A DNA stretch of 32,000 nucleotides from Candidatus Saccharimonadota bacterium (lineage in GTDB: Bacteria; Patescibacteriota; Gracilibacteria; BD1-5; UBA6164), in the NCBI GenBank assembly GCA_004563595.2, contig CP042461.1, positions 150,001 to 182,000 of the forward strand, read 5' to 3'. Every line of letters begins with the position of its first letter. Positions within the stretch are counted from its first letter, which is position 1. The position numbers were made by a program, and so were the translations under genes. Shown one piece after another: positions 1 to 32,000 of the stretch. The notes beneath the pieces were generated by a model. It was not told the origin of the DNA and made no database searches. It was given only the letters and a program-made list of their open reading frames with translations.

Positions 1-43
1 ACTTTTTTTATGAGATTAGTACTATGTAATACAAGGTAAATAT

Positions 44-376
44 ATGTGAGACAATTTAGAAAAAATATCAGCTCAGATGAGGAAGTGAATCTTGGAATAT
101 GTAATCCTGATGATTATAGATTCTGGAGACGTCTATTCATCTGATATATTAAAGATGTTAAAAGAAAACAATCTGATAGTCGTTGAGGGAACACTCTATC
201 CACTCTTATCCAGATTGAGAAAAGAATCGATTATTACCTACTTTTGGGTGGAATCAAGCTCTTGACCACCAAGGAAGTATTTTAAACTCACCAAGGAATG
301 AAAAGAGCTGTTAAAAACGATGAACATCGTATGGACTGACCTGCGAGATGCAGTAAAAAATATTTGAAAGAAATAA
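44..376 (+). CDS. PadR family transcriptional regulator
   Basis: ATG at 44, TAA at 374-376, preceded by an in-frame TAG at 17-19. Five in-frame TGAs are read as Gly. The translation contains VEGTLYPLLSRLRKESIITYFWVESSSGPPRKYFKLTKEGKELL, the PadR winged-helix signature. Confidence 0.85.
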
Positions 377-398
377 TTTATATTTAAAAAAACAAAAA

Positions 399-2000
399 AT
401 GAAAAAGATAGTAATAGGTGGTCAAAAATTTAGTCTTTCAGAAACCTCAGAAATATTTTTAAATAAATATTTAAGTAAAATGAAGACTTTTATGAAAAAG
501 AACGATATCGAAATAGAAGTCTATGATGACATCGAAGAAAGAATATCTGAAAGATTTAATGAAAGCATTCCATCAAAAACAAAAAGAGAAATATCAGATA
601 CTATAGTTATTGATATCGTAAATGAAATCTGAGAACCAGATGAAATATTTGCTGACCTTTTAGATGACTCAGCTCCTGAAGTAAAAAAAGAAAGTAAAAT
701 AAACTTCAAAGAATATTTTTCAAACGAAAATGAAACACTCACAAGAAACTCTGAAGAATGAATTATCTTTTGAGTATGTTATTGAATCGGTGATAGATAT
801 GGAATAGATCCGCTATGGATTAGACTATGATTTGTATTTGGTGCTTTCCTATGGGGAATGACACTCTTCTTATACATCATTCTCGCAATCTTGCTTCCTA
901 ATATTGCAGGGTCAAAAAAAAAAGTAATAACCTATGAGAGTAAAGTTGATAAAAAAGAAGCTAAAAAAGAAAATAAAGGAGATGAAATAAAAGAAAAAAA
1001 TATTCCTCTCAAAAATACTCCTACCCAAAAGAGTGAAGAACAAAAAGATGAACAAATCGTAGAAAAACCACCCGTAATAGAAGTGCCAGTTCAATATATC
1101 AAAACAAAAGCACCTTCGTTTTTTAAAGAAGTTGGACTGTTAATAAAAAGAGTATTTTTCTTTTTATTATGGATAATAAGAATCATGATAGCTGCTCTCT
1201 TATCAGTTTGGGCAATACCTGTTATTCTTTCTTTTTTACTCGTATCAGGAATGTTTTTTGCTGATCTATCGTTTGATAATCAAAAACTATTTACACACTT
1301 GCATTTATTCTTAAAAATTTGAGCTGTTTGAATGCTCATGTCGCTGGCATTTTTGATAATTTGAATTATCTGAAAGCTGTTAAAGTGAAAATGATTTACA
1401 AATATCCTAATGTTTATTGGTTTTATTGGAATCCTAAGTTTCTTGTTTGTATGAAGCGTATGATTCTTTAATACTTTCAATAATTATTCAAATGTATATG
1501 AAAAAACTGAGACCTATGATTTTGGAAATAATGAAGCAATGTTAGATAGACTATCTGCATTTTGAGAAAGTACCTCTATGATAAACGGAGTCAATTGGGT
1601 TGATAATTTAGAATTCAGAAAATCAAATACTGGAAGTATTAAAATAGAAGTTGTTTCTAAGATTAATGCAAAAAATCAAGCTGTTGCTGATAGTATATTA
1701 TCAGAGCTCACTCCATTAGAATTTGAAATGGACCCAAATATATGATTTTGATTAGACTGAAAATCAACTTTTAAAAAAGAAGTAGCATTTTCATTTCTCA
1801 GAAGAGATATCATTATCTATATCCCAGAGAAAGACTTTGATTTGAGGATAGGGGATTTATATGAGATGGATATTCATGAAATCAACAATCTTTACTATGA
1901 AGATGATGGGGAATATGAAAATTATTGGATTTCATATCATTGTATGAATACAAAGGTTGAATATAACGAAGAAAAATGATTTTTCGTTTGTAGGAAATAA
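399..2000 (+). CDS. PspC domain-containing membrane protein with a DUF1700-like N-terminal helical region
   Basis: One frame runs from ATG 399 to TAA 1998-2000 and joins track ORFs 399..632 and 858..1322 through in-frame TGAs. The motif GIIFGVCYGIGDRYGIDPLWIRLGFVFGAFLWGMTLFLYIILAILLP is a PspC domain. It is followed by a Lys/Glu-rich linker, more TM helices and a C-terminal soluble part. It lies 22 nt after the PadR stop. Confidence 0.8.
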
Positions 2001-2025
2001 AAAAAGAGCAAATGCTCTTTTTTTA
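2001..2025. terminator. Bidirectional rho-independent terminator
   Basis: Stem aagagc/gctctt with a 4-nt loop, flanked by an A-run and a T-run. It sits between the convergent CDS ends at 2000 and 2023. Confidence 0.5.
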
Positions 2026-2418
2026 TGCTCTTTCTAAATTTTCTTCAATTCTATGCATAATTGTTTTGTTGATACTGTTTTCACCATTATTAATCATATC
2101 GATCAAGTTGTCTATTGTTAGTATGATAACCTCTAGGTCTCAAGTTACTACTACACTTGCTGTTCTCGCTTCTTCATTTAAGAGAGCAATTTCTCAGAAT
2201 ATATCTCAAGCTCACAGTTCAGCAATATGAGTTCCTTTTATACGGATACTGACTCTTCATGATTTTATGATGTATCATTCTCCATTTGATGCTTCTCATT
2301 CTACAAGAATCATCTCACCATCTACAAATTTTCTCTCATCACAGTTCTTAATAATCTTGTCGACTGTGTCTCTTTCAATTCCTTGGAAAATTTTAAGTGA
2401 ATAAATGCTTTCAGGCAT
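2023..2418 (-). CDS. Cyclic nucleotide-binding domain protein (stand-alone cNMP-binding domain)
   Basis: Minus-strand ATG at 2418-2416, TAA at 2025-2023, 131 aa, with 7 in-frame TGAs. The translation FVDGEMILVEGEASNGEGYIIKSGRVSIRIKGTHIAELGAGDIFGEIALLNEEARTASVVV matches the Crp/PKA-type cNMP-binding fold, including the FGE and RTA motifs. Confidence 0.8.
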
Positions 2419-2444
2419 AATCATATATAAAAAAATAAGTTCAT

Positions 2445-2464
2445 ATATATATTACTATAAATAT
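2445..2464 (-). promoter_or_regulatory. 20-bp promoter/operator-like element, copy 1 (minus orientation: ATATTTATAGTAATATATAT)
   Basis: Perfect reverse complement of 2619-2638. It ends 26 nt upstream of the minus-strand ATG at 2418. It is embedded in a 9-bp hairpin (2438-2446 paired with 2461-2469). Confidence 0.45.
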
Positions 2465-2618
2465 GAACTGAAAGCAAACATGAGTGTAATAATTGTAATT
2501 ACTCAACAATGACTTTTTTATGAAATTGCAGCCTCTTTCCCCTGTGAAGGGGAGAGAATTCAAGTGAGAGGTAAAAAAAACATATAACCTCTCGGATTCT
2601 TTTGTGTTTTTTCAATTT

Positions 2619-2638
2619 ATATTTATAGTAATATATAT
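2619..2638 (+). promoter_or_regulatory. 20-bp promoter/operator-like element, copy 2 (ATATTTATAGTAATATATAT)
   Basis: Perfect inverted copy of 2445-2464. It ends 25 nt upstream of ATG 2664. It resembles the AT-rich stretch gatagtatatatgtatatatatttttaat upstream of the CDS at 13682. Confidence 0.45.
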
Positions 2639-2663
2639 TTTTAATATTTAATAATCAGTGACG

Positions 2664-4070
2664 ATGACAAGAAGAAGAAATACGCTTTCTAAAACGCTCA
2701 AAGACTATATAGTTCCTATTATTTGAGTTGTGCTTATTGCGGTACTTATTTTTAATGTATTTTCATGAGGAAATAATGATGTGCAAAACACTTTGGATAA
2801 AGAAAACCAAGTAGGGTATGGAGTTTCACTTGATTCAGCACAAACAGAAGGGTATGTTGTATATCCTGGAGATTATAGAAAACAAATAGAATGAGATATT
2901 ACTCTCTATAAAGGTGAAAAAGTGGTAGTAAAAGAAGGAAGTTTATCACTAGATTTTTTGAGTATGTGAGCTTGAAGAATAAATAAGCTCTGAGAGCTTA
3001 AATATTCTGAAGAGTGAGATCTTGAACTCTATTCTTCTGATTTTTGGGTAAATTCAACTACTAAGTGAGACCTTACTATGAGATATGCAAATATTTCATT
3101 TTCAGCAGATTCAGCTCTTTCGTTTTCACAGAATGAAATGGGAAGTACTATATATCTACTTTCATGATTTGCGGAGGTGAGTAATAAAGTTTGAGAAACA
3201 ACTGTTCTTGCTCCTGGGAAAAAGGTAACGATTTCAAGACTTGATTCAAATAATGAAGATGTAGATCTTGTATTATTAAAAGATGACATTGATGATTACT
3301 TCAAACAATCAGATTGGTTTGTAAAAAATAATGGTGCATCATATCTAGGAGCTTCTCAGGAGTCTTCAACTTGATCAACGAGTAAACTTATTAGCTCATC
3401 AAGTAGTACTTCGTATCTTTGATTTAATAACTTACAAGATGAATCTCAAGTTTCATCTGATACTATAAAGATTTCAGGGACTTATACTGATGAAACTATT
3501 ATAAAAATTACATTAAATGGAACTGAAGCTCAAATAAACTCTTCAAATAAATCATTTACATTTAGCTCAGTTTCAACGTCAAAAAAAGAAAATGACTTAG
3601 TCTTCAAAGTAGTTGATGATAGTGGTGATACAATAGAAAAAATACTATATACTGTATATTATGATGGTTGATCATCAGCCTCAACGAGTGGCTCAAAATG
3701 ATTTGCTGTAAAAAACTTTTCAGTTGATGGTTCTAAGTTTACATTTACTTCACCAACAACATCAAATTCATACAGTACAAGAGAAGCATTTGTAACTATA
3801 CGTGGGAATGTATTAAATAAATGAATCTCGTCAGTAACGGTTAATGGTTATAAACTGAGTTCATTTAATTGATCTACTTGGAGATACCATGCTTCTGAGC
3901 AAAATGATAACCTCAAAGATGGGACGAATATATATGAAATAAAATATTTTGATGCAAGTGGAAACCTGGCATATACAAATTATTACACGATAATAAAAAA
4001 TGCAGATCAAGTAGAAAAGACTGAAGAGATAGAAACAAAAGAAGAAAAGACTTTCTCTGATGAAGCGTAA
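2664..4070 (+). CDS. Membrane-anchored extracytoplasmic protein (N-terminal TM, FecR-like beta region, Ser/Thr-rich linker, Ig-like repeats)
   Basis: ATG 2664 to TAA 4068-4070, 468 aa, many in-frame TGAs, no TAA/TAG. The N-terminal anchor is YIVPIIGVVLIAVLIF. The segment GEKVVVKEGSLSLDF...TIYLLSGFAEVSN..GETTVLAPGKKVTIS resembles a FecR-type beta fold. Ser/Thr-rich tracts follow. The functional assignment is weak. Confidence 0.6.
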
Positions 4071-4077
4071 TAAAAAA

Positions 4078-4125
4078 TAGACAATAAAAAAACTGACTTA
4101 TATAAGTCAGTTTTTTTATTGTCTA
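4078..4125. terminator. 48-nt perfect palindrome, bidirectional terminator
   Basis: tagacaataaaaaaactgacttata / tataagtcagtttttttattgtcta, with a GC core (ctgactta/taagtcag) flanked by A7 and T7. It overlaps the TAG stop (4125-4123) of the minus-strand gene. Confidence 0.7.
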
Positions 4126-4443
4126 ACAACTACATCCACTTCCACATCATTCAGGAGCACATCCTCCTGCGGAATCTCATCCACCTATAATACTTATAAA
4201 CATAGATTTAAGCTCTGAATCTTCTGGGATAATACCTTCAAAAATAGTATCTTTAAAGTCTATTTCTTCTTCTTCTATGATAAGTGCAGGTTCTTTTGTA
4301 ATATTCAGTTCTTCTTTAAGTTTTTGGTCCATTGTTGTTTCAACTTTGATAAAATCAATGAGTCCTAATTCCTCTAGAACAGCTTGAACTTTATTTAATA
4401 GTTGAGTAGAATTCTCTTCATTTCAATAAATTTTAACTTTCAT
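4123..4443 (-). CDS. Thioredoxin-fold (MTH895/Thioredoxin_3-like) small protein lacking CxxC, with a Cys-rich C-terminal tail
   Basis: Minus-strand ATG 4443-4441, TAG 4125-4123, 106 aa. MKVKIYGNEENSTQLLNKVQAVLEELGL...KEPALIIEEEEI matches the small glutaredoxin-like fold, but GNEENS replaces the usual G-C-x-x-C. The tail is GGGDSAGGCAPEGCGSGCSC. Confidence 0.55.
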
Positions 4444-4465
4444 TATATATATGTTATTTTATAAT

Positions 4466-4506
4466 AAAAAATAGTACTTAGAGTATATTCTAAAAGTACT
4501 ATTTTT
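4466..4506. terminator. Rho-independent terminator downstream of rplY
   Basis: 13-bp stem aaaaatagtactt / aagtactattttt (4467-4479 paired with 4494-4506) with A/T runs on both sides. Confidence 0.55.
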
Positions 4507-4524
4507 CAATGATAATTATATGAA

Positions 4525-5142
4525 TTATGCTTCAGGTTTTTCATCAGCACCAGTAACTTCTGGAACTACGATTTCTTCTTCAATTTCAACCTTAGCAGGT
4601 AGATTTGATGAAGCAACCATATCACCTGATTTTGTAAGGATTTCAATTTTAGATGTATCAACTTTTAGATCTGATACTCTAATTGAATCCCCCATGTTTT
4701 CTAGTACAGATAAGTCAACCTCAATTGAATCAATAAGATCTTTTGGAAGACATTTGATTTCAACAGCTTTTAAATGTTCTTCAAGAAGAGCACCTTCTTT
4801 TACTGCTTGAGATTCTCAAATGAATTTCAGAGAAACCTTTGTTTGAAGAGCTGCACCTTTTGTGATAGCGTAAAAATCGATATGTATAAAGTCTCCAGAT
4901 ACTGGAGCTTTTTGAACTTCATGAACAAGTGTATCAATAGATTTTTTACCAACTTTTAAAGTGATAATATGACTTTCTCCACTTTTTCTGAATGTTTTTA
5001 AGAATTCTGAATAATCTAGAGTAAGAGCCATTGATTCTGTTTTGTTTCCATATACAACACATGGTAATTTTTTTGAAGCTCTTAGATCTCTCGGTTTGTC
5101 TTCTGTATTTCTTAATTCTGCGTTTAAGCTCAAATTTTCCAT
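4525..5142 (-). CDS. rplY: 50S ribosomal protein L25/general stress protein Ctc
   Basis: Extends track ORF 4816..5142 through one TGA to TAA 4527-4525, which I checked codon by codon. RASKKLPCVVYGNK...HIITLKV...VHEVQKAPVSGDFIHIDFYAI is typical of bL25, and the C-terminal Ctc domain is present. Confidence 0.9.
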
Positions 5143-5295
5143 AATTGATTTTTGATATTTTTAAATAAAAAGCGAGGGAATTCTATTCTAAAAATGACTT
5201 TTGGCAAATGTTTTTTTACTTTTTCAAAAATTTATTTTAAAATAATATTTGCAGTTTTATTTTTATGGTTTTTTCCCAGTAGATACTTCCCTCTA

Positions 5296-7203
5296 TTATC
5301 TGATGATAAGCCTGTCATCACTGATTTCAAAAGTAAGTTTATTGATCCCATTTTTATGTAAAATCATTATTTCTCAATCATGGTTTATATAGAAATCATT
5401 GATGAGCTCGTTTTCTCATTCTATTTGTCATATATATGTGAGACTGCTTGTATTTTTGTAATTGTTTGTATTTGGTTTAAAAACCCAAACTCTATTATTT
5501 AACAACATATAGACATAATTTAATTCAGCTCTTGTTTTGAGATCAATTTTTGATTCAGAATTTTCTATGTCATAATTTTTTGGAAGTTTATTGAGAACAA
5601 TGCTTTCCAATCTATATTTTGGGTTTGAGTAAAACTTCACTATGGATAAATCTTTTTTGAGTATATAGAATCATCAATCTATTGCTATAGATAAGATATC
5701 TCAAATTTGTGTTACATCGTCATCATTTAAATATGAAGTTGCTTTTGAGAATACCTTTCAATTGAGAGAGTGTTTATAAATTTGGTTTTTATCAGCTCAG
5801 ATGAGATAAATATTTTGTCAGTAAGAATTAATTTCTTTTGATTTTTCCCATAATTTTTGATCAGACACATCCATGAAACTGAAATGTTTACTTTTTGAAA
5901 ATTTTACTACTTTTGAAAAGTTTGTTGTTAAATATGTTGTTTCTCAAATACTGGTTGCATCTACAAAATGTTCATCTTGTTCCAGGTCATTGAATGTATA
6001 TGTTTTTGGTTTTGTATTTGGAATGATTGGTCCCGTAATACTTTTCTTATTTATAATATAGGCTTTTTTATTATTTTTTACCAGTTTTATTGAATCTGAG
6101 AGATCTTCTTTGTATATAATATTTGTTGCTTTTGATTCAAAACTCTCAATTTTGTTAAATTGTTTTCTGAGTATGTTGATATCATCATTGATTTTTTCAA
6201 TATCGTTTGTGAATAGCTCTTCATCTTTGATTTCATTGACAAGGCTTTCTGCATTTTGTAAATGAAGCTCAAATGCATCAATGTTTGCTACATTTTCACT
6301 CGCAAGTCTGAGATATGTTTTTGCTTTTACTAAGTTTTCTTTTGAAACCTCTTTTTCTTTATTATCTGTTGAAATTCAGATTATTGTTGAAAGCATTGAA
6401 TACAAGACTACCAGAGATAGGGTGATTCATACTAGGAAGGCTATATTTTTTACGTTTTTAGATTGTTTATTGAGTTTGTCTTTTAATATCAAAACAGAAG
6501 CCATTATTTTTTTAGAGGATTTTTTATCCAAGAGCTTAAAAAAATATTCTTTTACAAGAAGAAGTTTATTATTCTCTTCTGCACTTGTAAGAAAGTGAGA
6601 GTATTTTATAACGGTTACTCATATATTTTTTTCTAGAATTTCAGAAAGAAGGATATTTTTGATGTTTTTATTAAATACTTTTACATCTTTTTCTTTATTA
6701 ACTCCATCTAATATGTCACTTTTTGAGAGGTAATTGAGTAACTTTTCAGTTGATATGATAACTACTTCATCATCATGCAATTCTCCGTTTGAAATAAATG
6801 AAAATTCTTTTTTATGATCATCAGTTTCAGTAAGTTCTGTTATTTCATTGTCTTTTTTTAGAAGATAACAAGAAGCATTTCATATACTAGAAAATATAAA
6901 GTTATTTTTATTTAAGAGTCATATAACGATATCTAATTGTATATCTTTTTTTGAGTCTTGTTTCCAAGTTTTGATAAGGGCATTTATGTTTTCTAGAGCA
7001 ATACTGAAATCATTGTAAGTATTATCTTCAGATATTTTATTAATGATAAAATCAAGAATATTATTTATAATCAGATCTCAGAAATGTGAATTATTTGAGC
7101 TTATAAGGATGAAACAGTCTAAGTTTTGTTCTAAGTTGATATTTTTTTTGATGACTTCATTGTCTTTCATGAAATTAATTTTTTTTGAACTGATTTCGAA
7201 CAT
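5296..7203 (-). CDS. Large membrane protein: degenerate PP2C/SpoIIE-like N-terminal domain, TM segment, coiled coil, C-terminal beta-repeat region
   Basis: I checked every in-frame triplet from 5641 to 7245. No TAA/TAG occurs until the upstream stop at 7245-7243, and the first ATG is at 7203-7201. The downstream TAA is at 5298-5296, giving 635 aa. The PP2C-like blocks IFSSIGNASCYLLKKDNEITELTE and GELHDDEVVIISTEKLLNYL have the catalytic Asp positions replaced. The TM segment is IAFLVGITLSLVVLYSMLSTIIG. Confidence 0.6.
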
Positions 7204-7387
7204 ATATTTACGTTTACTGATAAAGGAGTTTAAGAGTACATGTTATGGACTAAAAAAATTATATAGAAAAGGAAGGAAAATCAAAATTGAAAATACAGTT
7301 TTTTTTATTATACTTTGTGCTATTAAAAAAATATGGTTTTTTGAACTGAAAATTATATTTATATTTATTCTCCTAATATATAAAAAC

Positions 7388-8644
7388 TTGTTAATAATAA
7401 AAGGTGGAAAGGCATTAACTTGAAAGATAAAAGTCAGTGGGTCAAAAAATGCGGCACTTCCAATTTTATGAGCTGCACTTCTTCTAAAGGGGAAAGTAAG
7501 ATTAAAATGAATGCCAAATATCTGAGATGTAAATACTTTTTTAGATATTATGTCAAATATATGAGTAAAGTATAAATTTATAGGAGATACTTTGGAATTT
7601 GATTCTTCAAACATCAGTAAAGATAATCTTGACCTAGAAAAAATCAAAAAGATTAGAGCTTCAATTTTTTTACTCTCACCTCTTTTATATTTTTTCTGAA
7701 ATATATCTATTCCGTTTCCATGAGGATGTAATATTTGAAAAAGACCTATTGACGCTCATCTGAATTGACTTCAGGCAATCGGATATGATTACAAGATAGA
7801 TGATGAAGAAATAATTTTAGAATGAAAATTAGAGTCATGAGATAAAACAATAAATGCTTGATTTTGAGTGAGTTCAACAGAGAACCTTATAGTTGCAAAT
7901 GTACTAAGGAAATGAGTAACAACTATTGAGCTTGCAGGGATTGAACCACACGTGATGAATCTCGTTGATTTTTTAAGAGCAGCAGGAGCTGATATTAAAA
8001 TAAGATATAATCATACTATTATTGTAACATGAGTGAAAGAATTACGAGATGATTTTGAATTTAATATTATATCAGATTACATTCAATCATGAACATACAT
8101 GGTTTTAGGAGCACTCGCTGCTGAAAAGTATATAGATATAGAGAATGCAAGAATACAAGATTTATATGCTTTTATTGAGAAATTAAAAGATGCATGAGTA
8201 CAGGTAGAAAATTTATGAAATGATACTCTGAGAGTCTTTAAATCTGAGAGGTTGAAAACGGTTTCTATACAAACAAATATATTTCCAGGTTTTCCGACAG
8301 ATCTTCAATCACCATTTGCTGTTTTGATGACTCAAGCAAAATGAACAAATAAAGTTCATGAAATACTTTTTGAGGGGAGGTTGAATTTCCTTGTAGAGTT
8401 AGAAAAGATGCAAGCAAATGTTGCACTCTTAAATCCTCATGAAGCACTCATTTTTGGTCCATCTCCTCTAAAATGAGGAGTCTCAGTAACATCATGGGAC
8501 CTGAGAGCTTGAGCTGCAATGGTGATAGCATGACTGATTGCTGAGTGAACCACAAAAGTTACAAAAGTAGAGTACATTCATAGAGGATATGAAAATTTTG
8601 TAGAAAATTTACAATCGCTTTGAGCAGATATAGAAGAAGTATAA
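7388..8644 (+). CDS. murA: UDP-N-acetylglucosamine 1-carboxyvinyltransferase
   Basis: KVSGSKNAALPILGAALL, RASIFLLSPLL and [22 protein letters not shown] contain the active-site Cys loop, and the protein ends at TAA 8642-8644. I counted about 24 in-frame TGAs, all at Gly-compatible positions. The start is assigned to TTG 7388, the only table-25 start near the conserved N-terminus, and is uncertain. Confidence 0.9.
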
Positions 8645-8675
8645 AAACAAGACGTTATTTTTTAATATAAACATT

Positions 8676-8861
8676 ATGAAAGCATTTCCAGTAGCATTAA
8701 TTATTTTTTGAGTTGTTATTATTCTCGCTCCAGCTATTTTAGCATATTTGATCTGATGATTTTTCATTTTTATCTGAATTAATTTATTAGCATTTTTCAA
8801 AATGACAGGGGGGAATAAAGAAGAGTATGTAAAGTTTGGGAAGTATAAAATATATAAATAA
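8676..8861 (+). CDS. Small hypothetical membrane protein (61 aa, two hydrophobic helices)
   Basis: ATG 8676 to TAA 8859-8861. The translation is MKAFPVALIIFGVVIILAPAILAYLIGGFFIFIGINLLAFFK.... It fills the gap after murA. No homology was recognised. Confidence 0.4.
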
Positions 8862-8871
8862 TCTTTGATAT

Positions 8872-9399: not shown

Positions 9400-9417
9400 A
9401 AATTTGCTTTCCCAAAA

Positions 9418-9454
9418 AAGGATATATAATCACATACATTATATATCCTTTTTC
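9418..9454 (+). terminator. Rho-independent terminator
   Basis: Perfect 13-bp stem aaggatatataat / attatatatcctt (9418-9430 paired with 9438-9450), 7-nt loop, then a T-run. Confidence 0.65.
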
Positions 9455-9460
9455 TTTCCG

Positions 9461-10432: not shown

Positions 10433-10497
10433 AAAAACTGGATAAAACTATAAATTGCACTATAATGAATGCAGTTTATTTTTTTAAATTAATTATT

Positions 10498-11055: not shown

Positions 11056-11064
11056 TAAAACATA

Positions 11065-11973: not shown

Positions 11974-11979
11974 AAAAAA

Positions 11980-22820: not shown

Positions 22821-23591
22821 ATGTGAAGAGGTCCAGTTGTAGCAAAGAGAAGAGATGCCGTGAATGCAGTAAAAGGAAAGGTGTTTTCTATTCATGCGAA
22901 ACTTATAGCTATTGCAGCACAATCAGGATGAGATCCAGATCAAAACCCATGACTTGCTGCAGCGATATATAAGGCAAAAAAAGAATGAGTCCCAAATGAT
23001 AATATTGAGAGAGCAATAAAAAAGGGTACAGGAGAAGATAAAGAGGCAGCGCAAATCGTCTGAATCATGTATGAATGATATGCTCCAGGTTGAGTAGCTC
23101 TTGTTGTAAATGTATTAACAGATAATAAAAATAGAACGGTTGCGAGTATGAGACATATTTTTACAAAGTATGGTTGAAATATGTGAGAATCATGAGCAGT
23201 TGCTTGGATGTTTAAAAGAAAATGAATCATTTTTATTGATCCAGCGAAACATGATTTTGAATCAATAGAAGCCCTTACTTATGAAACCGATGCAGAAGAT
23301 ATCTGTATGGAGGCTTCATATATCAAAATTACTACTTGATTAGATGATTTCTCATCTGTAGAGAATTTTTTTATAAATAATAATATAGCTCTTTTTGAAT
23401 CAAAGCTTGATTATATCCCTGATACTGATACAGAAATAACAGAGTTTGAGAAAGCTCTCAAATTTACAAAAATGATGGAAGCTTTTAATGAAGATGAAGA
23501 TGTAGAGTGGGTTGCAACAAATGAAGTTATATCAGATGAACTTCAAAAGGAAGTAGATGCGTTTATAGAAAAAAATACATTTAAAACATAG
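22821..23591 (+). CDS. yebC: YebC/PmpR family DNA-binding transcriptional regulator
   Basis: MGRGPVVAKRRDAVNAVKGKVFSIHAKLIAIAAQSGGDPDQNPGLAAAIYKAKKEGVPNDNIERAIKKGTG...[39 protein letters not shown] is the canonical YebC sequence. TAG is at 23589-23591. Confidence 0.92.
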
Positions 23592-23621
23592 AAAAAGAGA
23601 GAACTTAAGTTCTCTCTTTTT
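23592..23621. terminator. 30-nt perfect palindrome, bidirectional terminator
   Basis: aaaaagagagaactt / aagttctctcttttt. The HIT-gene stop (23607-23605) lies at its centre. Confidence 0.65.
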
Positions 23622-24021
23622 GTTGCTCTGCTAGCATATTTTCTATCCAACTTGGATGTATTTTTCCTGGAAGAAAATGATAGTGTAGATGTGCAATAGA
23701 TTTTCATCCTGAGGTTTCGCGTATAAACGAAAAATAATTTTCTTCATTTTTAAAGTAATCTTTCATAAATTTTTCTACTTCTTTCATAGATGCAAATTCT
23801 TCATGAGTTAATTTAGATGTTTCTGTGATATGACGATGAGGGATAACTAGGAGATGACTTTTTATTCAACAATGAGGATATTTTGAGTGAGCTATATAGA
23901 AATATCTTCATTTCCATATAGTGTATTCCTCAATATCTTTGGTATTACAAAAAGGACAGTTTGATTCTCATAGGTCAGCTGGTTGTACCTTGTACCATTC
24001 TTCGCGAGTTCAAAATTTCAT
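23605..24021 (-). CDS. HIT family protein (histidine triad nucleotide hydrolase/transferase)
   Basis: Minus-strand ATG 24021-24019, TAA 23607-23605, 138 aa. Motifs are CPFCN, YPHCGIKSHLLVIPHRH and the histidine triad HLHYHFLP. Confidence 0.8.
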
Positions 24022-24047: not shown

Positions 24048-24073
24048 AAAAAAAAGTTAATCTTTCGATTAAC
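24048..24073 (-). terminator. Rho-independent terminator after rpmG
   Basis: gttaatc-tttc-gattaac, with an A8 run on the plus strand that reads as a T-run on the minus strand. It overlaps the rpmG stop. Confidence 0.5.
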
Positions 24074-24251
24074 CTTTTTTAATTTCTTTCATTTTTAACA
24101 CTTCGTGTTTTCTTGTTACTTTATTGTATTTTCTTAGAGTTGGACCTTTTACTCCAGCTTCATAATTCTTTTTTTGAATGTTTGTAGTGTGAACCATGTT
24201 ACCAGTTTCAGTAGAGTAGTAAGCAACGTATGTTCTTTTTCCTTTAGCCAT
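24069..24251 (-). CDS. rpmG: 50S ribosomal protein L33
   Basis: Intact in the track, with no TGA. MAKGKRTYVAYYSTETGNMVHTTNIQKKN...LRKYNKVTRKHEVLKMKEIK follows the bL33 pattern (Cys-less type). Confidence 0.85.
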   Translation of the reverse strand: MAKGKRTYVAYYSTETGNMVHTTNIQKKNYEAGVKGPTLRKYNKVTRKHEVLKMKEIKKG

Positions 24252-24327: not shown

Positions 24328-24873
24328 TTACACTTTCATGATGTCAGTATCTTTGTGTTTGTACATTTCATCAATTTTTTTATTTGCGTCTTCAATAATC
24401 TTTTGTAAGTCTGTTTCTAGGTCTCTTGCTTGATCTTCAGAGATTTCTTTGTCGTCTTCTGCTTTTTTGATAAGTTTATGAGAATCAGCTCTGGCATTTC
24501 TAATACCAACTTTTGCTTCTTCAGATAGTTTTTTTGCTATTTTTGAGAGGTCTCTTCTTCTTTCTTCTGTAAGAGGAGGGACTTTTATGATAATTGAATC
24601 GGCCATAGTTTGTGGATTGAGCCCAAGTCCAGCATCTGTGATTGCTTTTGCAATAGCATGCATGATAGAAATGTCCCAAGGTTTAATACAGAGGGTTTGT
24701 GAATCCAATAGACTTACAGAAGCTGAGTTTTTTAATGATTGCATGGCTCCATAACTTTCGATAAGAACATCTTCCACAATAGCAGGATTTGCTCTTCCTA
24801 CTTGTAGTTTTCAAAACTCTGATTCTAAATGGTGAAGTGCTTTTGTAATTCATTCTTGAGCTTTCCCGATCAT
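24328..24873 (-). CDS. frr: Ribosome recycling factor
   Basis: Track ORF 24328..24777 extended upstream through 2 TGAs to ATG 24873-24871. The extension is MIGKAQEGITKALHHLESEFGKLQVGRANPAIVEDVLIESYG, and the protein continues with VPPLTEERRRDLSKIAKKLSEEAKVGIRNARAD. Confidence 0.93.
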
Positions 24874-25005: not shown

Positions 25006-25716
25006 ATGGCAATTTTAGAAGTAAGAAGTATTACAAAGTTCTTAGCAAAAAAGAAAATATTAAAAAATGTTTCTTTTTCAGTAAAAGCAGGGGAAATATA
25101 TGGATTCCTATGACCTAACGGTGCCTGAAAAACTACGACAATGAAGTGTGTTATGGGTTTGATTGATCCTGAAGAAGGTGAAATTAAAGTATTTTGAGAT
25201 ACTGGATTAACTCTCAAAGCAAAAGAAAAGATATGATTTATGCCAGAAAATACCTATTTATATAAACACTTAACAGGGAGAGAATTTTTAAGATTTAATG
25301 GAAAATTCTTTGATTTTTCAGATAAAAAATTAGAAAAAAGAATTAATGAACTCTTGAAGCAAGTATGACTTAAAGAAGCAGCAGATAATTATTTACATAG
25401 TTACTCTAAATGAATGCTTCAAAGAGTATGACTTGCTCAATCGATTATAAATAAACCAAAACTTCTTTTCTTAGACGAGCCAATGAGTGGACTTGACCCA
25501 ATCGGTCGTAAGATGGTAAAAGATCTTCTTGTATCACTCAGAGAGGACGGAACAACTATATTTTTTAATACTCATATCCTTGCTGATGTTGAAAGTATCT
25601 GTGATAGGGTGAGTATCATTGATAAATGAAACCTGATAGTAGAAAGCAAAAAAATGTCAGATATCAAATGAAGCTTAGAAGATTTCTTTATAGAAAAAGT
25701 AGAAGGAAATTCATAA
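25006..25716 (+). CDS. ABC transporter ATP-binding protein (ABC-2/NatA-like)
   Basis: The Walker A motif GPNGAGKTT has its 1st and 3rd Gly encoded by TGA (25111-25113 and 25126-25128). The signature motif is YSKGMLQRVGLA, Walker B is [12 protein letters not shown], and the H-loop is NTHIL. TAA is at 25714-25716. Confidence 0.9.
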
Positions 25717-25720: not shown

Positions 25721-25764
25721 AAGCAAGATAAAAGAGAAGCATATGCTTCTCTTTTATCTTGCTT
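25721..25764. terminator. 44-nt perfect palindrome, bidirectional terminator
   Basis: aagcaagataaaagagaagcat / atgcttctcttttatcttgctt. The right arm encodes the last residues and the stop (25756-25754) of ftsA. Confidence 0.65.
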
Positions 25765-26941
25765 CAATTTCTTTTACAGCTGCTATTATAGACTCTTCAA
25801 TAGGGTCTTTTTCTTTTTTGATAAAATCGAGTGTACTCATCATCATAGCATAGATATTGAGGTTTGATTTTGAGGAATCTATATTTTCTAGGTACTCAAT
25901 TTTGGGACTTACAAAAGATATATTTTTAGCTATTTTAAGATTATTTTGGTTGAGGTCGATATTCTTTAGATAATTTCTTACAAACTTCCCACTTCCTCAT
26001 CAAGTCATAAAAAAGTCACTCGGACAAAGAGAATTTCATAGAATCTCTTCAAGAGATATTATGAGAATATCTTTGAATATTTTCATAAATTCTTCTTTTT
26101 CATCAAGGTAAATAGCTTCTTCTATGGAATTTATGATTTCAATATTTCTGAGGTCATGGTTTGCTTTGATTTGCTTTATAAGAGCATTAATTCCTACAGA
26201 TATTTTTTTGACTCAGAGTATATCGTAGTCTTTTTTTACTATTATAGAAGTATGTGAATTTCAGAGATCTATGATTACAATATCTTTCTTTGTTTTGAAT
26301 AGGTTTGTAATAGCTAGCTCTGAAGGGATTATTTTTACAATAGTTTTCCCTGTTCTTCTTGCTAGAGATTGAGTAAGTTCATATTTATTTTCTGGAATAA
26401 ATATATTGAGAAGAGAAATATTGATTTCTCTTGGTGCTTTTCCTATCAATGCTTTTGTCTTTTTAGAATCAATTTTTATTTCATTGATTCCACTGATAAT
26501 GAGTTTAAGGTTTTCTTTTGTGTATCATGATATTTGTTTGATATTTTTTAAGTGCTTTTGTATTGATTGAGACTCTATTGTTTGAATTATTTTATATAAT
26601 TCTTTTTTGTCTATTTCAATTTCTGAATTTTCTCTTATATAGTTAATTTTGCTGTGCTCAAAAAATAGCTCATCAAAAGGAATGTTAATAATAATATCCT
26701 CTACTTGAGTATGACTATCCTGCTCAGCTTTTTCTATAGCTTTGTTAATATTAGCACATATTCACTCAATATTGACGTATTCTTGTAGTATTATATCATC
26801 TGTGTCTTGTCTTTTTTCTCAGTATCAAATGAGTTCTAATTCTTTATTTTTTAGCTTACAAATTCAGACCCTTATTTTATAAGTTCCGATATCTACGATT
26901 CAAATAATTTTGGAAGGAATTTTCTTTTTTGTGAAGGTCAT
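25754..26941 (-). CDS. ftsA: Actin-like ATPase, cell division protein FtsA (FtsA/PilM superfamily)
   Basis: Minus-strand ATG 26941-26939, TAA 25756-25754, 395 aa. Phosphate-1 is IIGIVDIGTYKIRVGICK, followed by ELIGYGEKRQD, phosphate-2 IVIIDLGNSHTSIIV, and adenosine motif FFMTGGGSGKF. Confidence 0.75.
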
Positions 26942-26953: not shown

Positions 26954-27463
26954 TTATGTCATATTTTTCTTTCAAATTTTTTGGAGGAGATTATTTCATT
27001 CACTTACTTCACCAATTCAAATAAGAGCCATGGCAAGATCTTCTGTAATAAGCTCATCTCAGGGAGCTATATTAAGAGATCTTTTTAAAATGCTAATTCC
27101 TCTTGTATTTTCTCATGTCATTGTATAAGCCCATCCGAGGTTTCTTAAAACTTCTGAATTATTTCAGAGCATACTATTTGACTTTTCGAGATATTTTATA
27201 GAATCTTTTACTTTGTCCTGGGAGAGAAGTATGAAACCTTTGAGGTAGTTTCATGTAGCTGAATCTTTGTTTAAATTTAATGCAAAATTAATTGCTTTTA
27301 ATCCTTTTTCTAGCTCTCCTTTGTAGAGATAAATATCTGCAAGCTCTTCATATAATCTATAATCAGAACTATTTTTGACGATACTTTCTTCCAATAAAAT
27401 TATGGCATCAGAGTATCTTTGATTTTCTTTGAGTGATTCGATTTGTAATATTATATCTTTCAT
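26954..27463 (-). CDS. Tetratricopeptide repeat protein
   Basis: Track ORF 27251..27463 extended through TGAs to TAA 26956-26954, 169 aa. TPR-like repeats include YSDAIILLEESI...YRLYEELADIYLYKGELEKGLKAINFALNLN, and LRNLGWAYTMTGENTRGISILKRSLNIAP. Confidence 0.7.
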
Positions 27464-27502: not shown

Positions 27503-28633
27503 TTATATTTTTAATGGCATAATAATATGCTTAAATTGAGTATCATTACTTTTTGAGTTTTCAGGATCAGTGATAGGAGAAATCATTATAGGTGAGAGAG
27601 GGTTTTCAAAGCTGATACTTACGTGAGTTGTATCTATTACTCCTAACACTTCTAAGAAATATGTTGAGTTTACTCAAACAATGTTATCTTCTCATTCAAT
27701 TGATCATACGAGAGTCACATTTCATTCTCAAATCTGTGTTTCAGATGTTTCAAGGAGGATTCAAGTTTCTGCTCCTATACTCATTTTAATAGAATAATTA
27801 TTCTCACGACTTACCAGGTTAATTTTTTTGAGAGCCCCCATGAGATCAATTCTATTGATCTCTGCTTTTGTAGAAAATGAAGTAGGGAAAAAGCTGCTAT
27901 AATCAGGGAATTTTCCATTTAATAATCTTGAATATACTTTTGTATTTCATGATAAAAATGCTATTTGGTTTTCTCATGAAATTACTTTTACATCATCATT
28001 ATCAGAGAGAATACTTTTAATTTGAGATGCTGTTTTGCTTGGAACAATACCATAGAAAGGGCTTTCTGTTTCTGTTTCAAGTTTCACTTTGTATTCAGAG
28101 AGTCTAAAACTGTCTGTAGATGCAAATATTGCATCACTTCACTTTATATTTACAGCTATTCATGCAAGAGTTGGCCTAATATTTCCTTCTGCAGATGAAA
28201 AAAGAGTTTTATCAATTGATTTTCTTATTATGTTTCATTTTATATTTAAGCTTATTTCTTCTTTAATGGATGGGATAAGAGGAAAATCACTCGCATCAGT
28301 TCATTTAATTTTTAGCTTTCAGCTTGTAGTTTCTATTTTTAGGCTTTCATTTCAAAGAAGTTCAATATGAACTTCATCATCAGTAATAAGAGCAATATAA
28401 CTGGTAAAGAGTTTACTCGGAATACAAAAAGCTCATTCAGACTCTATTTTTAAGTCTTCAGACAATACATATTCAATAGCCATCTCTAAATTATTTGATG
28501 TCAAAAATATATTGTTAAAGTTCACTTTTAATAATATATTTTCCAAAATAGGAGTAGTTGTGATCGACGCAGTTGCATGGTTTACAATATCAAGTCATTT
28601 TTTGAGTTCAACGGTTTTTATTGAAAATTTCAT
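27503..28633 (-). CDS. dnaN: DNA polymerase III subunit beta (sliding clamp)
   Basis: Minus-strand ATG 28633-28631, TAA 27505-27503, 376 aa. Matching blocks are MKFSIKTVELKKGLDIVNHATASITTTPILENILLKV, LTSNNLEMAIEY, RPTLAGIAVNIKGSDAIFASTDSFRLSEYK, SRLLNGKFPDYSSFFP and HIIMPLKI. Confidence 0.92.
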
Positions 28634-28736: not shown

Positions 28737-29732
28737 CTATCAATCAAAGATAACAGACAAGTTCTTATTTCTCATGATTTCATATTTAATACAGCCTAGA
28801 AAGGCTCTCAGCTCGGTTCATTTTATGATTATCTTATAATAATATTGATTATATCTTTTATGATAATTTGGTACTTCTTGTATTGTGATATTTCATGATG
28901 TATTTTCTAGACTCAGTTTATTATTTAATTGTTTCATAAAGGCTTGAGCTTTGTCTTTATTTGTATGTCTATATTCTAATGTGAGCATTTCAGTAAATGG
29001 AGGATAGTTAAAAAGTTTTCTTTCGGCAAGGCTCTGTTTAAAAAAATCTTTATAATTATCATCTACTATACTTGTAATTATCTCATTTTTTGGAATAAAT
29101 GTTTGAATGATTATTTTTGTTTTTTCTCCATTTCTAGATCATCTTCCTATGAGTTGTTTAATGTTTGAATATACTTTTTCTTTTGTATTATATGCTGGTA
29201 TTTGAAGCTCTTGTTCAAGAAGAATGGTTCATATAAGTCATATATTCTTAAAATTAAATCATGTAGTGATCATTTTTGTTCCTATAATTATATCTGCGTT
29301 TTGTAATTTTTCTAGTGCTTGTTTTTTTTCAGTTTTATTTTTTACTACATCAGTATCAAACCTAAAAATCCTTACTGTTTTTGGAAGGTATCAGTGAAAA
29401 AAAGCTTCAATTTGTTGAGTTCAAATTCATACGTTTTTTATGTTTTTTTGACCACATTTTTCACATTTCATAGGAATATTTTTCTCAAAAGAACAGATAT
29501 GACACAGGAGCTTAGCCGGGTATCTATGGACATTTAAAGAAACATCACAGTGTACGCATTTGTATAGATACTGACAACTTTGACATATGAGTGATGAAAA
29601 TTCTCACCTTCTATTTAAGTAAAGAATCACTTTCTTGTTTTCTTTTAAAGTTACTTCAATTTCTTTGAGAAGAGTATTTGAAATATATGTATTATGCGAA
29701 GATTGATCTTGGGATAAGTTCACTAAGTACAT
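28737..29732 (-). CDS. priA: PriA (primosomal protein N')-like protein, C-terminal half only (helicase lobe 2, Cys-rich zinc region, C-terminal domain)
   Basis: Minus-strand ATG 29732-29730, which is the only start after the in-frame TAA at 29765-29763. TAG is at 28739-28737, giving 331 aa. Matching blocks are VILYLNRRGEFSSLICQSCQYLYKCVHCDVSLNVHRYPAKLLCHICSF...MKCEKCG, GIGTQQIE, IIIGTKMITTGFNF, IGRGSR and ERKLFNYPPFTEM. No Walker A or DEAH lobe is encoded here. Confidence 0.8.
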
Positions 29733-29826
29733 TTTGTATGCTAAGAAAATATTTTTATGTAATTATATTGTAAAAACTTTTGCTTTTTTTCAAAACTTGA
29801 GTTATTATATAGGGGAGACATATAAC

Positions 29827-30705
29827 ATGTATACGGTTTCCTCCTTAATCCTTGTACTGCTATATGTCTCTTTTTTTGTGTTTTATTTTCATATATGTTA
29901 TGATATTATATATATTATTAATATCATTTATATGATTATTGAGGACTTAGAGTTAGAGAATAAAGAATTGAAAAGGAAGTTAAAAATTGCGAAACAGTGG
30001 ATGGAAAAAGAAGTGAAAAACCAAGTTTCAAGAATTACAAAAGAAAAAATAGAAAAATTATCACCATCTGAAGTCGAGGATTTATTTGAAGAAAATATTG
30101 AAGATACAATTACAACAAAAATAACTCGTTTTTTTGGTGAAGTTACTTTGATTAATATGCCAAGTTCAATTGTAGAGAATATTATCTCTGCAGAGATCAA
30201 TTATTATAATATGAGAAAAAATCCAAATTTTGATGGATTAAGCGTGATTCTCTCATATCATAAAGCATTAGATGTAATGATAGAAAGTTTTATTATTAAA
30301 TGATTCAGAAAATTTGCGCATAAGAAAAAACAAACAACTTTGAGGCAAAATGATGTATTAGAAAAATCATTGAACTCTGTTGTGAATACGTGATATATAT
30401 TGAGTGTATGAAGATTATTTCACGTATTACAGCTTATATCTCATGATGAGAAACTTTTTGATTATGTGGGGTGTTTTAAAGAGTATTTAAGTAAATATAC
30501 ATATTTACAAGATGTATTGCTGAGTGATGAATTTATGAAGGTGTTTAGTGATTTGGTAAATTCAGAAATATTAGGGAAAAAAAGGCATGTTTGAAAAACC
30601 AATTTTGTAGAGACAAGAAAAGCAAGAGAGTTACTTATCTGAGGCCTTGAAAATAAAAACTGTTTAATTTATATGTTAGCAGAAACTCAAAAATTAGATT
30701 TTTAA
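29827..30705 (+). CDS. Hypothetical protein: N-terminal TM anchor, coiled coil, C-terminal helical domain
   Basis: ATG 29827 is preceded by the SD-like aggggag at a 9-nt spacer; an alternative start is ATG 29932. TAA is at 30703-30705. It is in the frame of track ORF 29734..30303, extended through TGAs. The TM segment is SSLILVLLYVSFFVFYF and the coiled coil is LELENKELKRKLKIAKQWMEKEVKNQ. No family was recognised. Confidence 0.6.
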
Positions 30706-30756
30706 ACTATAATATTGAAAGTAATTTATTGAACTTTAAGAAGATTGAATGGAAAA

Positions 30757-30791
30757 GAAGTAATAGCATTACGCTATTACTTCTTTTTTTT
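30757..30791. terminator. Bidirectional rho-independent terminator
   Basis: Perfect 11-bp stem gaagtaatagc / gctattacttc (30757-30767 paired with 30773-30783), followed by T8. The stop of the minus-strand gene lies in the loop. Confidence 0.65.
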
Positions 30792-31389
30792 GAACAATTT
30801 TAGCAATACCAATATATACCACTAAGATTGTCATTAATGCGAATAAATATATGATAAACGCTGAGCCTACAAATGAATGTTCTTCAATAGCAAGCAGGGC
30901 TAAGAGACCTCCAACTGACCAAGAAAGCCATGGAATTATACTTTCCCCTTGTGGATTTTTATATATTTCTCGTAATAGTGGAGTAAATACTATAAAATCA
31001 ACAGAAATAAGAACTATACTAAGAGTTTTTTCTACCCAAGGGATATTTCCATATATTGAACCTTCTATGATAAGATAGCTTATAAATAGATTTATTGCCA
31101 TTAATGAACATACTTTATCAAATCTTCCTATATCTGTTAATTTGGAGCCATTTTTCATCATTAGTAATGCAATAATTAATGGACCCGTAAATAACATGAT
31201 TCCTTGAAATAATTCAATACGATCTGTTTCAGAAAAGACTTTACTCAGCATTACTATGAATCCTATAAGAGTCCAAAGAAGCCAAGTTACTAAATTGATA
31301 TTTTCTGCATCATTTTTGAGTGCTTGATAGTATTTATAGAATCCAAATGCTGTAAAAGCAAGAGACGCTAAAAACAGATAATCATTCAT
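30769..31389 (-). CDS. Hypothetical multi-pass membrane protein (206 aa, about 6-7 TM helices), TGA-free
   Basis: Intact in the supplied standard-code track. It is hydrophobic throughout, with 13 Gly codons (none TGA) and 5 Trp (TGG). The family was not recognised; any resemblance to small PnuC/PQ-loop-type transporters is only a guess. Confidence 0.75.
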   Translation of the reverse strand: MNDYLFLASLAFTAFGFYKYYQALKNDAENINLVTWLLWTLIGFIVMLSKVFSETDRIELFQGIMLFTGPLIIALLMMKNGSKLTDIGRFDKVCSLMAINLFISYLIIEGSIYGNIPWVEKTLSIVLISVDFIVFTPLLREIYKNPQGESIIPWLSWSVGGLLALLAIEEHSFVGSAFIIYLFALMTILVVYIGIAKIVQKKEVIA

Positions 31390-31517
31390 AGTTTGTTCCT
31401 TTTGTTTTTGTTTGTTGTTTTATAATACCTATTTTTATCTAATTTCAAATTATTTATTTACAATAATTATAATTCATTTAAACTAAAGAATATATTATAA
31501 ATAAATTATTAAAATAC

Positions 31518-32000
31518 ATGTTATATATAGTTTCCACTCCGATTTGAAACCTAGGTGATATCACTTACAGAGCAGTAAGAACATTACAAGAAGTTGATGG
31601 GATTGCTTGTGAAGATACAAGAAAGAGTTCTATTTTGCTGAATCATTATGAGATTAAAAAACCACTTATTAGTTTTCATTCACATTCAGGAAAAGTAAAA
31701 ATTGATAAAATAATTGATCAATTAAAAACAGGGAAAAATATTGCACTCATAAGTGATGCCTGAACTCCTGGAATTTCAGACCCATGATATGCTCTTATAA
31801 AAGAAGCTATTGTTGAGTGAGTAGAAGTAGTGCCAATTCCATGAGTTACAGCGGCTATTACAGCTGTCTCAGCTTCTGGTATGCAATCACACCACTTTTT
31901 ATATCTTTGATTTTTACCGATCAAAAAATGAAGACAAACACTTTTTAAAAAACTTGTAGAAAAAGATCATACGGTTGTTATTTATGAATCTGTCCATAGA
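31518..32000 (+). CDS. rsmI: 16S rRNA (cytidine1402-2'-O)-methyltransferase RsmI (3' end beyond window)
   Basis: [44 protein letters not shown]...[24 protein letters not shown]...VVPIPGVTAAITAVSASG is the canonical RsmI tetrapyrrole-methylase fold. The frame is open to the window edge. Confidence 0.9.

Follow-up and report, generated by a model that had tools for sequence, protein, structure and literature searches.

UGA encodes glycine throughout a 32,000-nucleotide chromosome segment of a gracilibacterium

The stretch of DNA analyzed here, hereafter the window, comprises 32,000 nucleotides (nt) of contig CP042461.1 (positions 150,001 to 182,000 of the forward strand) and has a G+C content (GC) of 28.2%. 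Its genes become continuous once the codon UGA (TGA in the DNA) is read as sense, and the comparisons described below confirm that this codon specifies glycine. We consider it virtually certain that the window derives from the chromosome of Candidatus Gracilibacteria bacterium 28_42_T64 and is written in genetic code 25, in which UGA means glycine, translation stops only at UAA and UAG, and tryptophan is encoded by UGG alone.

Under translation table 11, no open reading frame (ORF) in the window reaches 300 amino acids (aa); the longest has 206 aa, and 39% of the sequence lies within ORFs of 60 aa or more. When only TAA and TAG are taken as stops, 14 ORFs reach or exceed 300 aa, the longest encoding 635 aa, and raw coverage amounts to 94%. 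As a control, TGA was kept as a stop and either TAG or TAA was opened, which yielded longest ORFs of just 206 and 275 aa, respectively. Moreover, 25 stop-to-stop frames in the real sequence span 200 codons or more, whereas 100 dinucleotide-preserving shuffles contained 0.05 such frames on average and never more than one. The initial annotation, which was made from the letters of the window, had stated that the supplied ORFs are fragmented because UGA is a sense codon throughout, and had proposed to re-call the genes under different translation tables. Both the fragmentation and the gain in coverage are evident from these figures, and translation with code 4 (UGA for tryptophan) restores the reading frames equally well. 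Its view that the fragments fuse into full-length coding sequences (CDSs) also stood, but the number of 40 CDSs did not, as the curated set comprises 41.

These 41 CDSs cover 92.5% of the window, and 34 of them end with TAA and 6 with TAG. Their 9897 codons include 321 in-frame TGA, 285 GGN, and 49 TGG. With a density of 32 per 1000 codons TGA is present in 38 of the 41 genes, and it accounts for 53% of all glycine codons, which makes it the commonest glycine codon here. Its frequency in frame (321) is about the same as in the two other frames (216 and 499). In-frame TAA and TAG are absent from all 41 genes; off frame, TAA occurs 396 and 425 times and TAG 304 and 98 times. With TGA read through, Pfam profiles were matched over their full length by MurA (positions 2–417 of 417) and ribosome recycling factor (1–164 of 164), and all three domains of DnaN were recovered; such full-length matches were obtained only in this way. 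Further Pfam matches under read-through include YebC, LemA, M48, ABC, RsmI, PilC, and others.

The longest ORF is not the gene at every place. The picks at 7243–8800, 13783–14661, and 18718–19020 were rejected as antisense shadow ORFs by comparison with relatives, and the true genes at these places, all on the plus strand, are MurA (7388–8644), two genes of a pilus cluster (13682–14767), and HU (18734–19006). On the identical contig in the JGI collection, a plus-strand ORF of 130 aa without any domain has been called at window positions 2012–2404. This call likewise appears to be a shadow ORF, since the minus strand at 2023–2424 encodes a protein with a cyclic-nucleotide-binding domain (E=9e-16) that has an ortholog in L005. 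A scan of the window with Rfam gave no match of any family, be it transfer RNA (tRNA), transfer-messenger RNA, or an element of the selenocysteine insertion sequence (SECIS) type. The curated gene set is as follows (L numbers are our labels for contigs and loci).

44–376 (+): PadR-family regulator; Pfam PF03551, E=3e-17; 5 TGA, one of them at 263 within SS-G-PPRKY
399–2000 (+): PspC-domain membrane protein; Pfam PF04024, E=1e-17; 18 TGA
2023–2424 (−): cyclic-nucleotide-binding protein; Pfam PF00027, E=9e-16; ortholog in L005 on the same relative strand; 7 TGA
2405–2587 (+): hypothetical protein of 60 aa, a weak call; ORF only, called by JGI as well; 1 TGA
2658–4070 (+): hypothetical protein of 470 aa with N-terminal transmembrane segment; L005 ortholog 46% identical; 16 TGA
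4123–4443 (−): hypothetical protein of 106 aa with Cys-rich tail; L005 and L006 orthologs 65–67% identical; 3 TGA
4525–5142 (−): ribosomal protein L25/TL5; Pfam PF01386 and PF14693; 1 TGA vs. 9 GGN
5296–7203 (−): conserved hypothetical protein of 635 aa; full-length orthologs in L004–L006, 46–51% identical; no Pfam match; 16 TGA vs. 4 GGN
7388–8644 (+): MurA; Pfam PF00275, 2–417/417; PDB matches at E=2e-75; 24 TGA vs. 15 GGN; catalytic-loop TGA at 7721 and 7736
8676–8861 (+): membrane protein of 61 aa; ORF kept after MurA in 5/5 relatives; 4 TGA
8836–9399 (+): hypothetical protein; ORF and JGI call (JGI start at window position 8872); no Pfam match; 4 TGA
9404–10432 (+): PrsW-like membrane protease; PF13367 precomputed on the identical JGI gene; orthologs 56–69% identical; 9 TGA
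10465–11055 (+): LemA; Pfam PF04011, E=4e-56; 4 TGA
11065–11973 (+): M48/HtpX protease; Pfam PF01435; alignment to PDB 3cqb; 13 TGA; sole CGG of the window at 11257
12000–12998 (−): hypothetical membrane protein; orthologs in L004, L006, and L007, 39–42% identical; 14 TGA
13108–13560 (+): T4SS_pilin/TrbC-VirB2-like pilin; Pfam PF18895, E=5e-12; 10 TGA
13682–14206 (+): hypothetical protein of the pilus cluster; JGI call, orthologs, translation; 3 TGA
14243–14767 (+): hypothetical protein of the pilus cluster; JGI call, orthologs, translation; 4 TGA
14774–15904 (+): PilC/GspF platform protein; Pfam PF00482, E=3e-46, two repeats; 11 TGA
15989–16564 (+): prepilin; Pfam N_methyl; TGA 16010 is the −1 residue before FTVVE, where relatives have GGG or GCA
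16594–17187 (+): prepilin-like protein with Ala at −1; sequence KKA/FSIIE; orthologs; 5 TGA
17212–17799 (+): prepilin; TGA 17236 is the −1 residue before FTLIE, where relatives have GCT, GCA, or TGA
17818–18573 (+): pilin-like protein; orthologs; 17 TGA
18734–19006 (+): HU DNA-binding protein; 80–87% identical to PF00216-annotated genes of relatives; 0 TGA vs. 7 GGN
19114–19647 (+): HATPase_c_2 protein, anti-sigma-kinase-like; Pfam PF13581; 3 TGA
19655–20671 (−): hypothetical membrane protein; orthologs; 5 TGA
20613–20951 (−): RbfA; Pfam PF02033; 3 TGA
21102–21302 (+): basic protein of 66 aa; ORF and JGI call; no family match; 1 TGA
21401–22756 (+): peptidase U32 family protein; Pfam PF01136; 16 TGA
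22821–23591 (+): YebC/TACO1; Pfam; four PDB alignments, each with 4–7 TGA positions on Gly; 12 TGA
23605–24021 (−): HIT-family hydrolase; Pfam PF01230; 5 TGA
24069–24251 (−): basic protein of 60 aa with weak L33 match; NCBIfam TIGR01023, E=0.1, below cutoff; 0 TGA vs. 5 GGN
24328–24873 (−): ribosome recycling factor; Pfam PF01765, 1–164/164; 2 TGA
25006–25716 (+): ABC ATPase; Pfam; PDB alignments over LGxNGAGKTT with G at both Walker A TGA (25111, 25126)
25754–26941 (−): hypothetical protein of 395 aa; ORF and JGI call; no Pfam match; 11 TGA
26954–27463 (−): TPR protein; Pfam TPR families; 7 TGA
27503–28633 (−): DnaN sliding clamp; three Pfam domains; PDB alignments; 16 TGA
28737–29732 (−): PriA, C-terminal half only; Pfam; aligns to residues 418–678 of the 747-residue chain 4nl4; 11 TGA
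29932–30705 (+): hypothetical protein of 257 aa; start as in the JGI call
30769–31389 (−): orphan membrane protein A9Q91_00935; 0 TGA vs. 13 GGN; sole long ORF under table 11
31518–32000 (+): RsmI, running off the end of the window; Pfam; 7 TGA including 31761 and 31785, all on G of E. coli RsmI (5hw4)

In all protein comparisons TGA was masked as X, so that no amino acid was presupposed. A first homology search with MurA, which contains 24 TGA codons, retrieved recoded relatives only and was discarded as evidence: the X columns of 120 MurA relatives hold 1589 Trp and 1031 Gly cells, a mixture that arises because the sources translate with either code 4 or code 25 and that merely mirrors the annotators' choice of code. 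Indeed, the MurA of the window itself has Trp at all 24 TGA positions in the JGI copy and Gly at all 24 in the NCBI copy. The informative comparison was made with 143 distant MurA homologs taken from cluster representatives, which are less than 50% identical and have a Trp content of their own of 0.26%. In this set, 58.2% of the residues in the 24 TGA columns are Gly, compared with 68.8% in the GGN columns of the same gene, and Gly is the most frequent residue in 17 of these 24 columns, whose 3287 cells include 4 with Trp. The two codons in the MurA loop face Gly in 143 (7721) and 142 (7736) of the 143 homologs. A log-odds calculation in the style of Codetta over the MurA TGA columns gave +37.9 bits for Gly, −41.8 for Ser, −76.4 for Cys, and −98.3 for Trp; as a check, the same procedure was applied to 35 other codons and assigned 33 of them their standard meaning, with near-ties in the two remaining cases.

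Homologs of solved structure led to the same result. For DnaN, YebC, the ABC ATPase, RsmI, and HtpX, TGA positions face Gly in 65 and Trp in none of 125 cells, and the GGN positions of these proteins face Gly in 41 of 78. In RsmI, all seven TGA codons coincide with Gly in the E. coli enzyme. A test independent of any annotation was possible at the DNA level, by aligning the window with the contigs of five syntenic Gracilibacteria relatives. Here, 505 aligned TGA codons of the window face TGA in 222 cases, GGN in 126, Ser codons in 38, Ala codons in 19, and Thr codons in 18, but TGG in none. Conversely, TGG of the window is matched by TGG in 40 of 49 cells and by TGA in none, whereas GGA faces TGA in 68 of 168 cells. 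The amino acid composition fits this picture: glycine content would be 2.9% from GGN alone and is 6.1% with TGA added, and tryptophan amounts to 0.5% from TGG alone but would be 3.7% under code 4.

Individual TGA codons lie at functionally important residues. They encode glycines in the loop of MurA and in the Walker A motif of the ABC ATPase, and in two prepilins TGA provides the −1 residue of the cleavage site, where the codon of relatives is GGG, GCN, or TGA. Beyond position 32,000, in the flank of the source contig, a dnaJ gene (L128, 1250–2356) has TGA on glycines of the CxxCxGxG zinc-finger repeats (CGTCHGS-X, CKTCS-X-S-X), and the codon recurs all along the linker rich in Gly and Phe. 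The six positions that the initial annotation had named in MurA (7721 and 7736), the ABC ATPase (25111 and 25126), and the prepilins (16010 and 17236) all read TGA, and so do those in the PadR motif SS-X-PPRKY (263) and the RsmI motif DA-X-TPGISDP-X (31761 and 31785). Its expectation that TGA falls on glycines of homologous proteins was confirmed, at a rate comparable to that of the window's own GGN codons (58% vs. 69% in MurA; 65/125 vs. 41/78 in the structures), and the conservation of TGG in the relatives, with no exchange between TGA and TGG, supports its statement that Trp is encoded by TGG and that code 4 is thus excluded. According to four independent lines of evidence, namely the MurA homologs, the homologs of solved structure, the DNA of the relatives, and the composition, UGA encodes glycine and not tryptophan.

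The MurA of the window is identical at every unmasked position to an NCBI protein of Candidatus Gracilibacteria bacterium 28_42_T64 that is encoded on a contig of 1,343,103 bp, and the orphan membrane protein at 30769–31389 is 100% identical to A9Q91_00935 of the same organism. Furthermore, a metagenome contig of 493 kb in the JGI collection, which stems from an independent assembly, corresponds to window positions 1–18644 with zero mismatches. The NCBI taxonomy lists the organism (taxid 1862133) in the Patescibacteria group, phylum Candidatus Altimarinota. Protein identities, the lineage of this taxid, and the syntenic Gracilibacteria relatives agree in placing the window in the Gracilibacteria (BD1-5), the lineage that had been proposed for it from the recoding. 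The published genome of 28_42_T64 is closed, with a size of 1.34 Mb, a GC of 28.87%, and 33 tRNA genes, and code 25 was used for its gene prediction (Sieber et al., 2019; PMC6851277). In the same study prfB, the gene of release factor 2 (RF2), was detected neither in 28_42_T64 nor in any other BD1-5 genome, and prfA was present (PMC6851277). Consequently, the recoding is no novelty, as the initial annotation had rightly remarked: code 25 was defined for the very lineage to which this published organism belongs, its use here is already known, and the window contains no departure from it.

How UGA is translated can be proposed as follows. The codon would be read by a UCA-anticodon tRNA bearing the glycine identity set G1-C72, C2-G71, G3-C70, and U73. 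This tRNA(UCA) would be charged by glycyl-tRNA synthetase, and termination would not compete at UGA if RF2 (prfB) has been lost. The dedicated tRNA was observed in the lineage by a scan of GTDB genomes, whereas its charging and its decoding of UGA are what we infer and the loss of RF2 is taken from the literature. The search pattern required an anticodon loop with TTCAA, a T-loop, and all of the above identity elements, and it was found at 120 or more GTDB genome loci. Among the 120 loci listed, 86 share one conserved sequence of the Gracilibacteria type, including the complete genome HOT-871, and the conserved core was also present on 113 metagenome contigs. ARAGORN, applied to 33 loci, predicted a tRNA of 79 nt with anticodon tca wherever the conserved core was present. 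Over at least 199 loci of relatives the tRNA is represented by 37 distinct sequences of 76 nt, and CCA is encoded after all copies. It has the anticodon loop CTTCAAC, an unusual D-arm, and no long extra arm, and in several loci it adjoins tRNA-Gly(GCC) and tRNA-Arg(GCG). The sequence expected for 28_42_T64 is GCGnGGGTAACATAA…CTTCAAC…CGCT-CCA.

Different explanations of the in-frame TGA codons have to be weighed against the assignment to glycine. Tryptophan, the meaning of UGA in code 4 as used by Mycoplasmatales and several insect endosymbionts, restores the reading frames just as well, and Trp does stand at TGA positions in many public copies (1589 Trp vs. 1031 Gly cells in the 120 MurA relatives; 24 Trp in the JGI MurA). 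These residues, however, stem from gene callers that assume code 4, and the NCBI copy of the same MurA has Gly at 24 of 24 positions. As standard-code homologs show Trp in 4 of the 3287 cells aligned with TGA of MurA and in none of the 125 cells of the PDB alignments, TGA and TGG are not exchanged once in 505 aligned codons, and the implied Trp content would be 3.7%, we regard this meaning as very improbable. The interruption of nearly every gene under table 11 might instead be attributed to the standard code combined with pseudogenes or an error-riddled assembly. Such decay should not spare TAA and TAG, yet the frames are interrupted by TGA alone; the interruptions fall on conserved Gly positions, the TGA codons are shared with relatives in 222 of 505 cells, and the independent JGI assembly is identical across 18.6 kb, which leaves this explanation extremely improbable. 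Lastly, UGA could encode selenocysteine or cysteine, or be read through in a programmed manner at special sites. This idea draws on the tRNA(tca) of the lineage, which ARAGORN labels tRNA-SeC, but that tRNA is of the ordinary 76-nt type plus CCA and lacks the long extra arm. Selenocysteine would be expected at a far lower frequency than the 32 TGA per 1000 codons seen across 38 of the 41 genes, the MurA TGA columns score −76 bits for Cys, and the Rfam scan of the window gave neither a SECIS-type element nor any other match; the probability of this idea is vanishingly small.

Some observations do weigh against the interpretation of UGA as a glycine codon decoded by the tRNA described above. About 40% of the TGA positions face residues other than Gly in distant homologs; the same is true of 31–47% of the GGN positions, and because these behave alike the deviations can be explained by ordinary sequence divergence. 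The tRNA(UCA) was not seen in the source organism: ARAGORN detected no tRNA in the window and about 20 kb of source flanks (L003, L128), and the copy of 28_42_T64 is not among the 120 listed genome loci or the 113 metagenome contigs. The glycine identity elements were part of the search pattern and thus provide no independent evidence for charging; the informative part of the scan is the restriction of its matches to this lineage. The absence of prfB is taken from the published statement of Sieber et al. (PMC6851277). Finally, proteomics of a BD1-5 bacterium yielded, at the highest stringency, 40 peptides in favor of Gly and one in favor of Trp (Hanke et al., 2014; PMC4032931), and this single peptide touches on the exclusiveness of decoding. 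It is one of the arguments for a modified scenario in which UGA mainly means glycine but its decoding is ambiguous or costly, for instance by misreading through tRNA-Trp or by slow decoding, so that its use is shaped by expression. Also in favor of it are the avoidance of TGA in the genes for HU, L25, the L33-like protein, and the orphan membrane protein, the TGA share of 18% among the Gly codons of a conserved gene for a 110-aa protein beside the tRNA (see below), and the potential wobble ambiguity of U34 between UGA and UGG raised by Shulgina and Eddy (PMC8629427). On the other hand, the counts per gene are small, and codon bias in highly expressed genes is an ordinary phenomenon that needs no ambiguity. 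We consider this scenario rather unlikely; it would refine the assignment of UGA to glycine, with which it is compatible.

The reassignment of UGA to glycine in these bacteria was predicted in 2012–2013 and confirmed in 2014 by the proteomics of Hanke et al. (PMC4032931), with its 40 peptides for Gly against one for Trp. It became known as the SR1/Gracilibacteria code (NCBI translation table 25), reportedly through the work of Campbell et al. and Rinke et al. in 2013. With this code the window shares UGA for Gly, UAA and UAG as stops, UGG for Trp, the low GC, and the affiliation with the Patescibacteria/CPR (Candidate Phyla Radiation) lineage, as well as the tRNA(UCA) with Gly identity elements in the lineage and the reported absence of RF2, and no difference was found. 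Table 4, used by Mycoplasmatales, Entomoplasmatales, Hodgkinia, Nasuia, Zinderia, and Stammera, represents the capture of the same codon, with loss of RF2 and mostly low GC. The difference lies in the amino acid, as TGA in the window faces Gly rather than Trp and alternates with GGN, not once with TGG. Because table 4 restores the ORFs equally well, gene callers for metagenomes pick it, and Gracilibacteria proteins mistranslated with TGA as Trp occur in JGI, ENA, and Logan-derived collections. Public copies thus contain a systematic Gly-to-Trp mistranslation at functional sites. The window adds nothing new to the biology of UGA as a glycine codon, and its value is practical: annotation with table 11 fragments the genes, and annotation with table 4 puts Trp at more than half of the glycine codons, including catalytic and nucleotide-binding glycines.

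A variant of the code has been described for the Absconditabacteria, in which CGA and CGG mean Trp besides UGA for Gly, and CGG was predicted to mean Trp in some Gracilibacteria (Shulgina and Eddy, 2021; PMC8629427). The Absconditabacteria are a sister lineage with the same reassignment of UGA, and CGN codons are very rare in both. In the codon-by-codon comparison with the relatives all codons of the window were standard except for this very rare CGN box, which is represented in 9897 codons by 16 CGT, 2 CGC, 3 CGA, and 1 CGG. In contrast to the Absconditabacteria variant, CGT faces Arg at conserved sites of the ABC protein and DnaN and also provides the Arg of the HIT motif IPHRH, and the few CGA and CGG codons are located at variable positions. 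CGT is therefore an Arg codon, and its low score reflects variable positions. CGA occurs at 344, 8045, and 30972, and the only CGG (11257–11259) lies in a hydrophobic stretch of HtpX (LIILSV-x-MFV). The flanks contribute two further CGA and two CGG; all of these codons, in the flanks as in the window, are at variable or uncharacterised positions that are uninformative.

The usage of TGA differs among genes. Compared with its overall share of 53% of the Gly codons, TGA accounts for 0 of 7 in HU, 1 of 10 in L25, 0 of 5 in the L33-like protein (24069–24251), and 0 of 13 in the orphan membrane protein (30769–31389). The avoidance of TGA by the presumably highly expressed genes of HU, L25, and the L33-like protein suggests that UGA is the less favored glycine codon for high expression. 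For the orphan membrane protein, the lack of TGA has a binomial probability of about 5×10⁻⁵ at a share of 53%. This multi-pass protein of 206 aa has a GC of 0.30 and a GC at third codon positions of 0.19, both typical of the genome, and its matches among 5.8 billion proteins are itself (A9Q91_00935) and one protein with 26% identity. The gene may have been acquired recently from a standard-code donor or may be under special selection.

A very basic protein of 110 aa is encoded on the same strand 3′ of the tRNA(UCA) in 112 of the 157 loci with enough flank, in 89 of them within 300 nt. It has 530 homologs; the 120 listed are 79–95% identical to the query, a conservation higher than that of MurA, and every named match among these 120 belongs to Gracilibacteria or 'Peribacteria'. 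An ortholog from 28_42_T64 is not among the 120 listed of the 530 matches. Profile searches against Pfam, NCBIfam, and PDB gave no match, and the AlphaFold model is poor (predicted local distance difference test score 59, predicted template modeling score 0.29). TGA makes up just 18% of the Gly codons of the gene. The protein could be a dedicated translation factor or a ribosome-associated factor tied to UGA decoding. That the decoding of UGA as Gly is costly or imperfect in this lineage, and perhaps needs lineage-specific help, nevertheless seems quite improbable to us.

In 31 loci of a clade with approximately 40% GC (L027, L032, L091, and others), the tRNA(UCA) adjoins an Elp3-like gene for a radical-SAM/acetyltransferase protein, which is located divergently upstream of the tRNA in 27 of the 31. 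The family was assigned by eye from the sequence. Elp3 is a family that modifies U34 of tRNAs.

The PriA protein of the window has 331 aa and aligns to residues 418–678 of the 747-residue PriA chain of Klebsiella (4nl4). Upstream of its gene are an AT-rich spacer of approximately 200 nt and then a divergent gene, and because of this arrangement the N-terminal half with the DNA-binding region and the Walker A/B motifs is not encoded here. Helicase lobe 2, the Cys-rich region, and the C-terminal domain are retained.

The region 13108–18573 represents a type IV pilus-like cluster. No PilB/PilT ATPase is encoded within the window. The cluster consists of a TrbC/VirB2-type pilin, two small membrane proteins, the platform protein PilC, and four pilins or prepilins, and its gene order is kept in four relatives.

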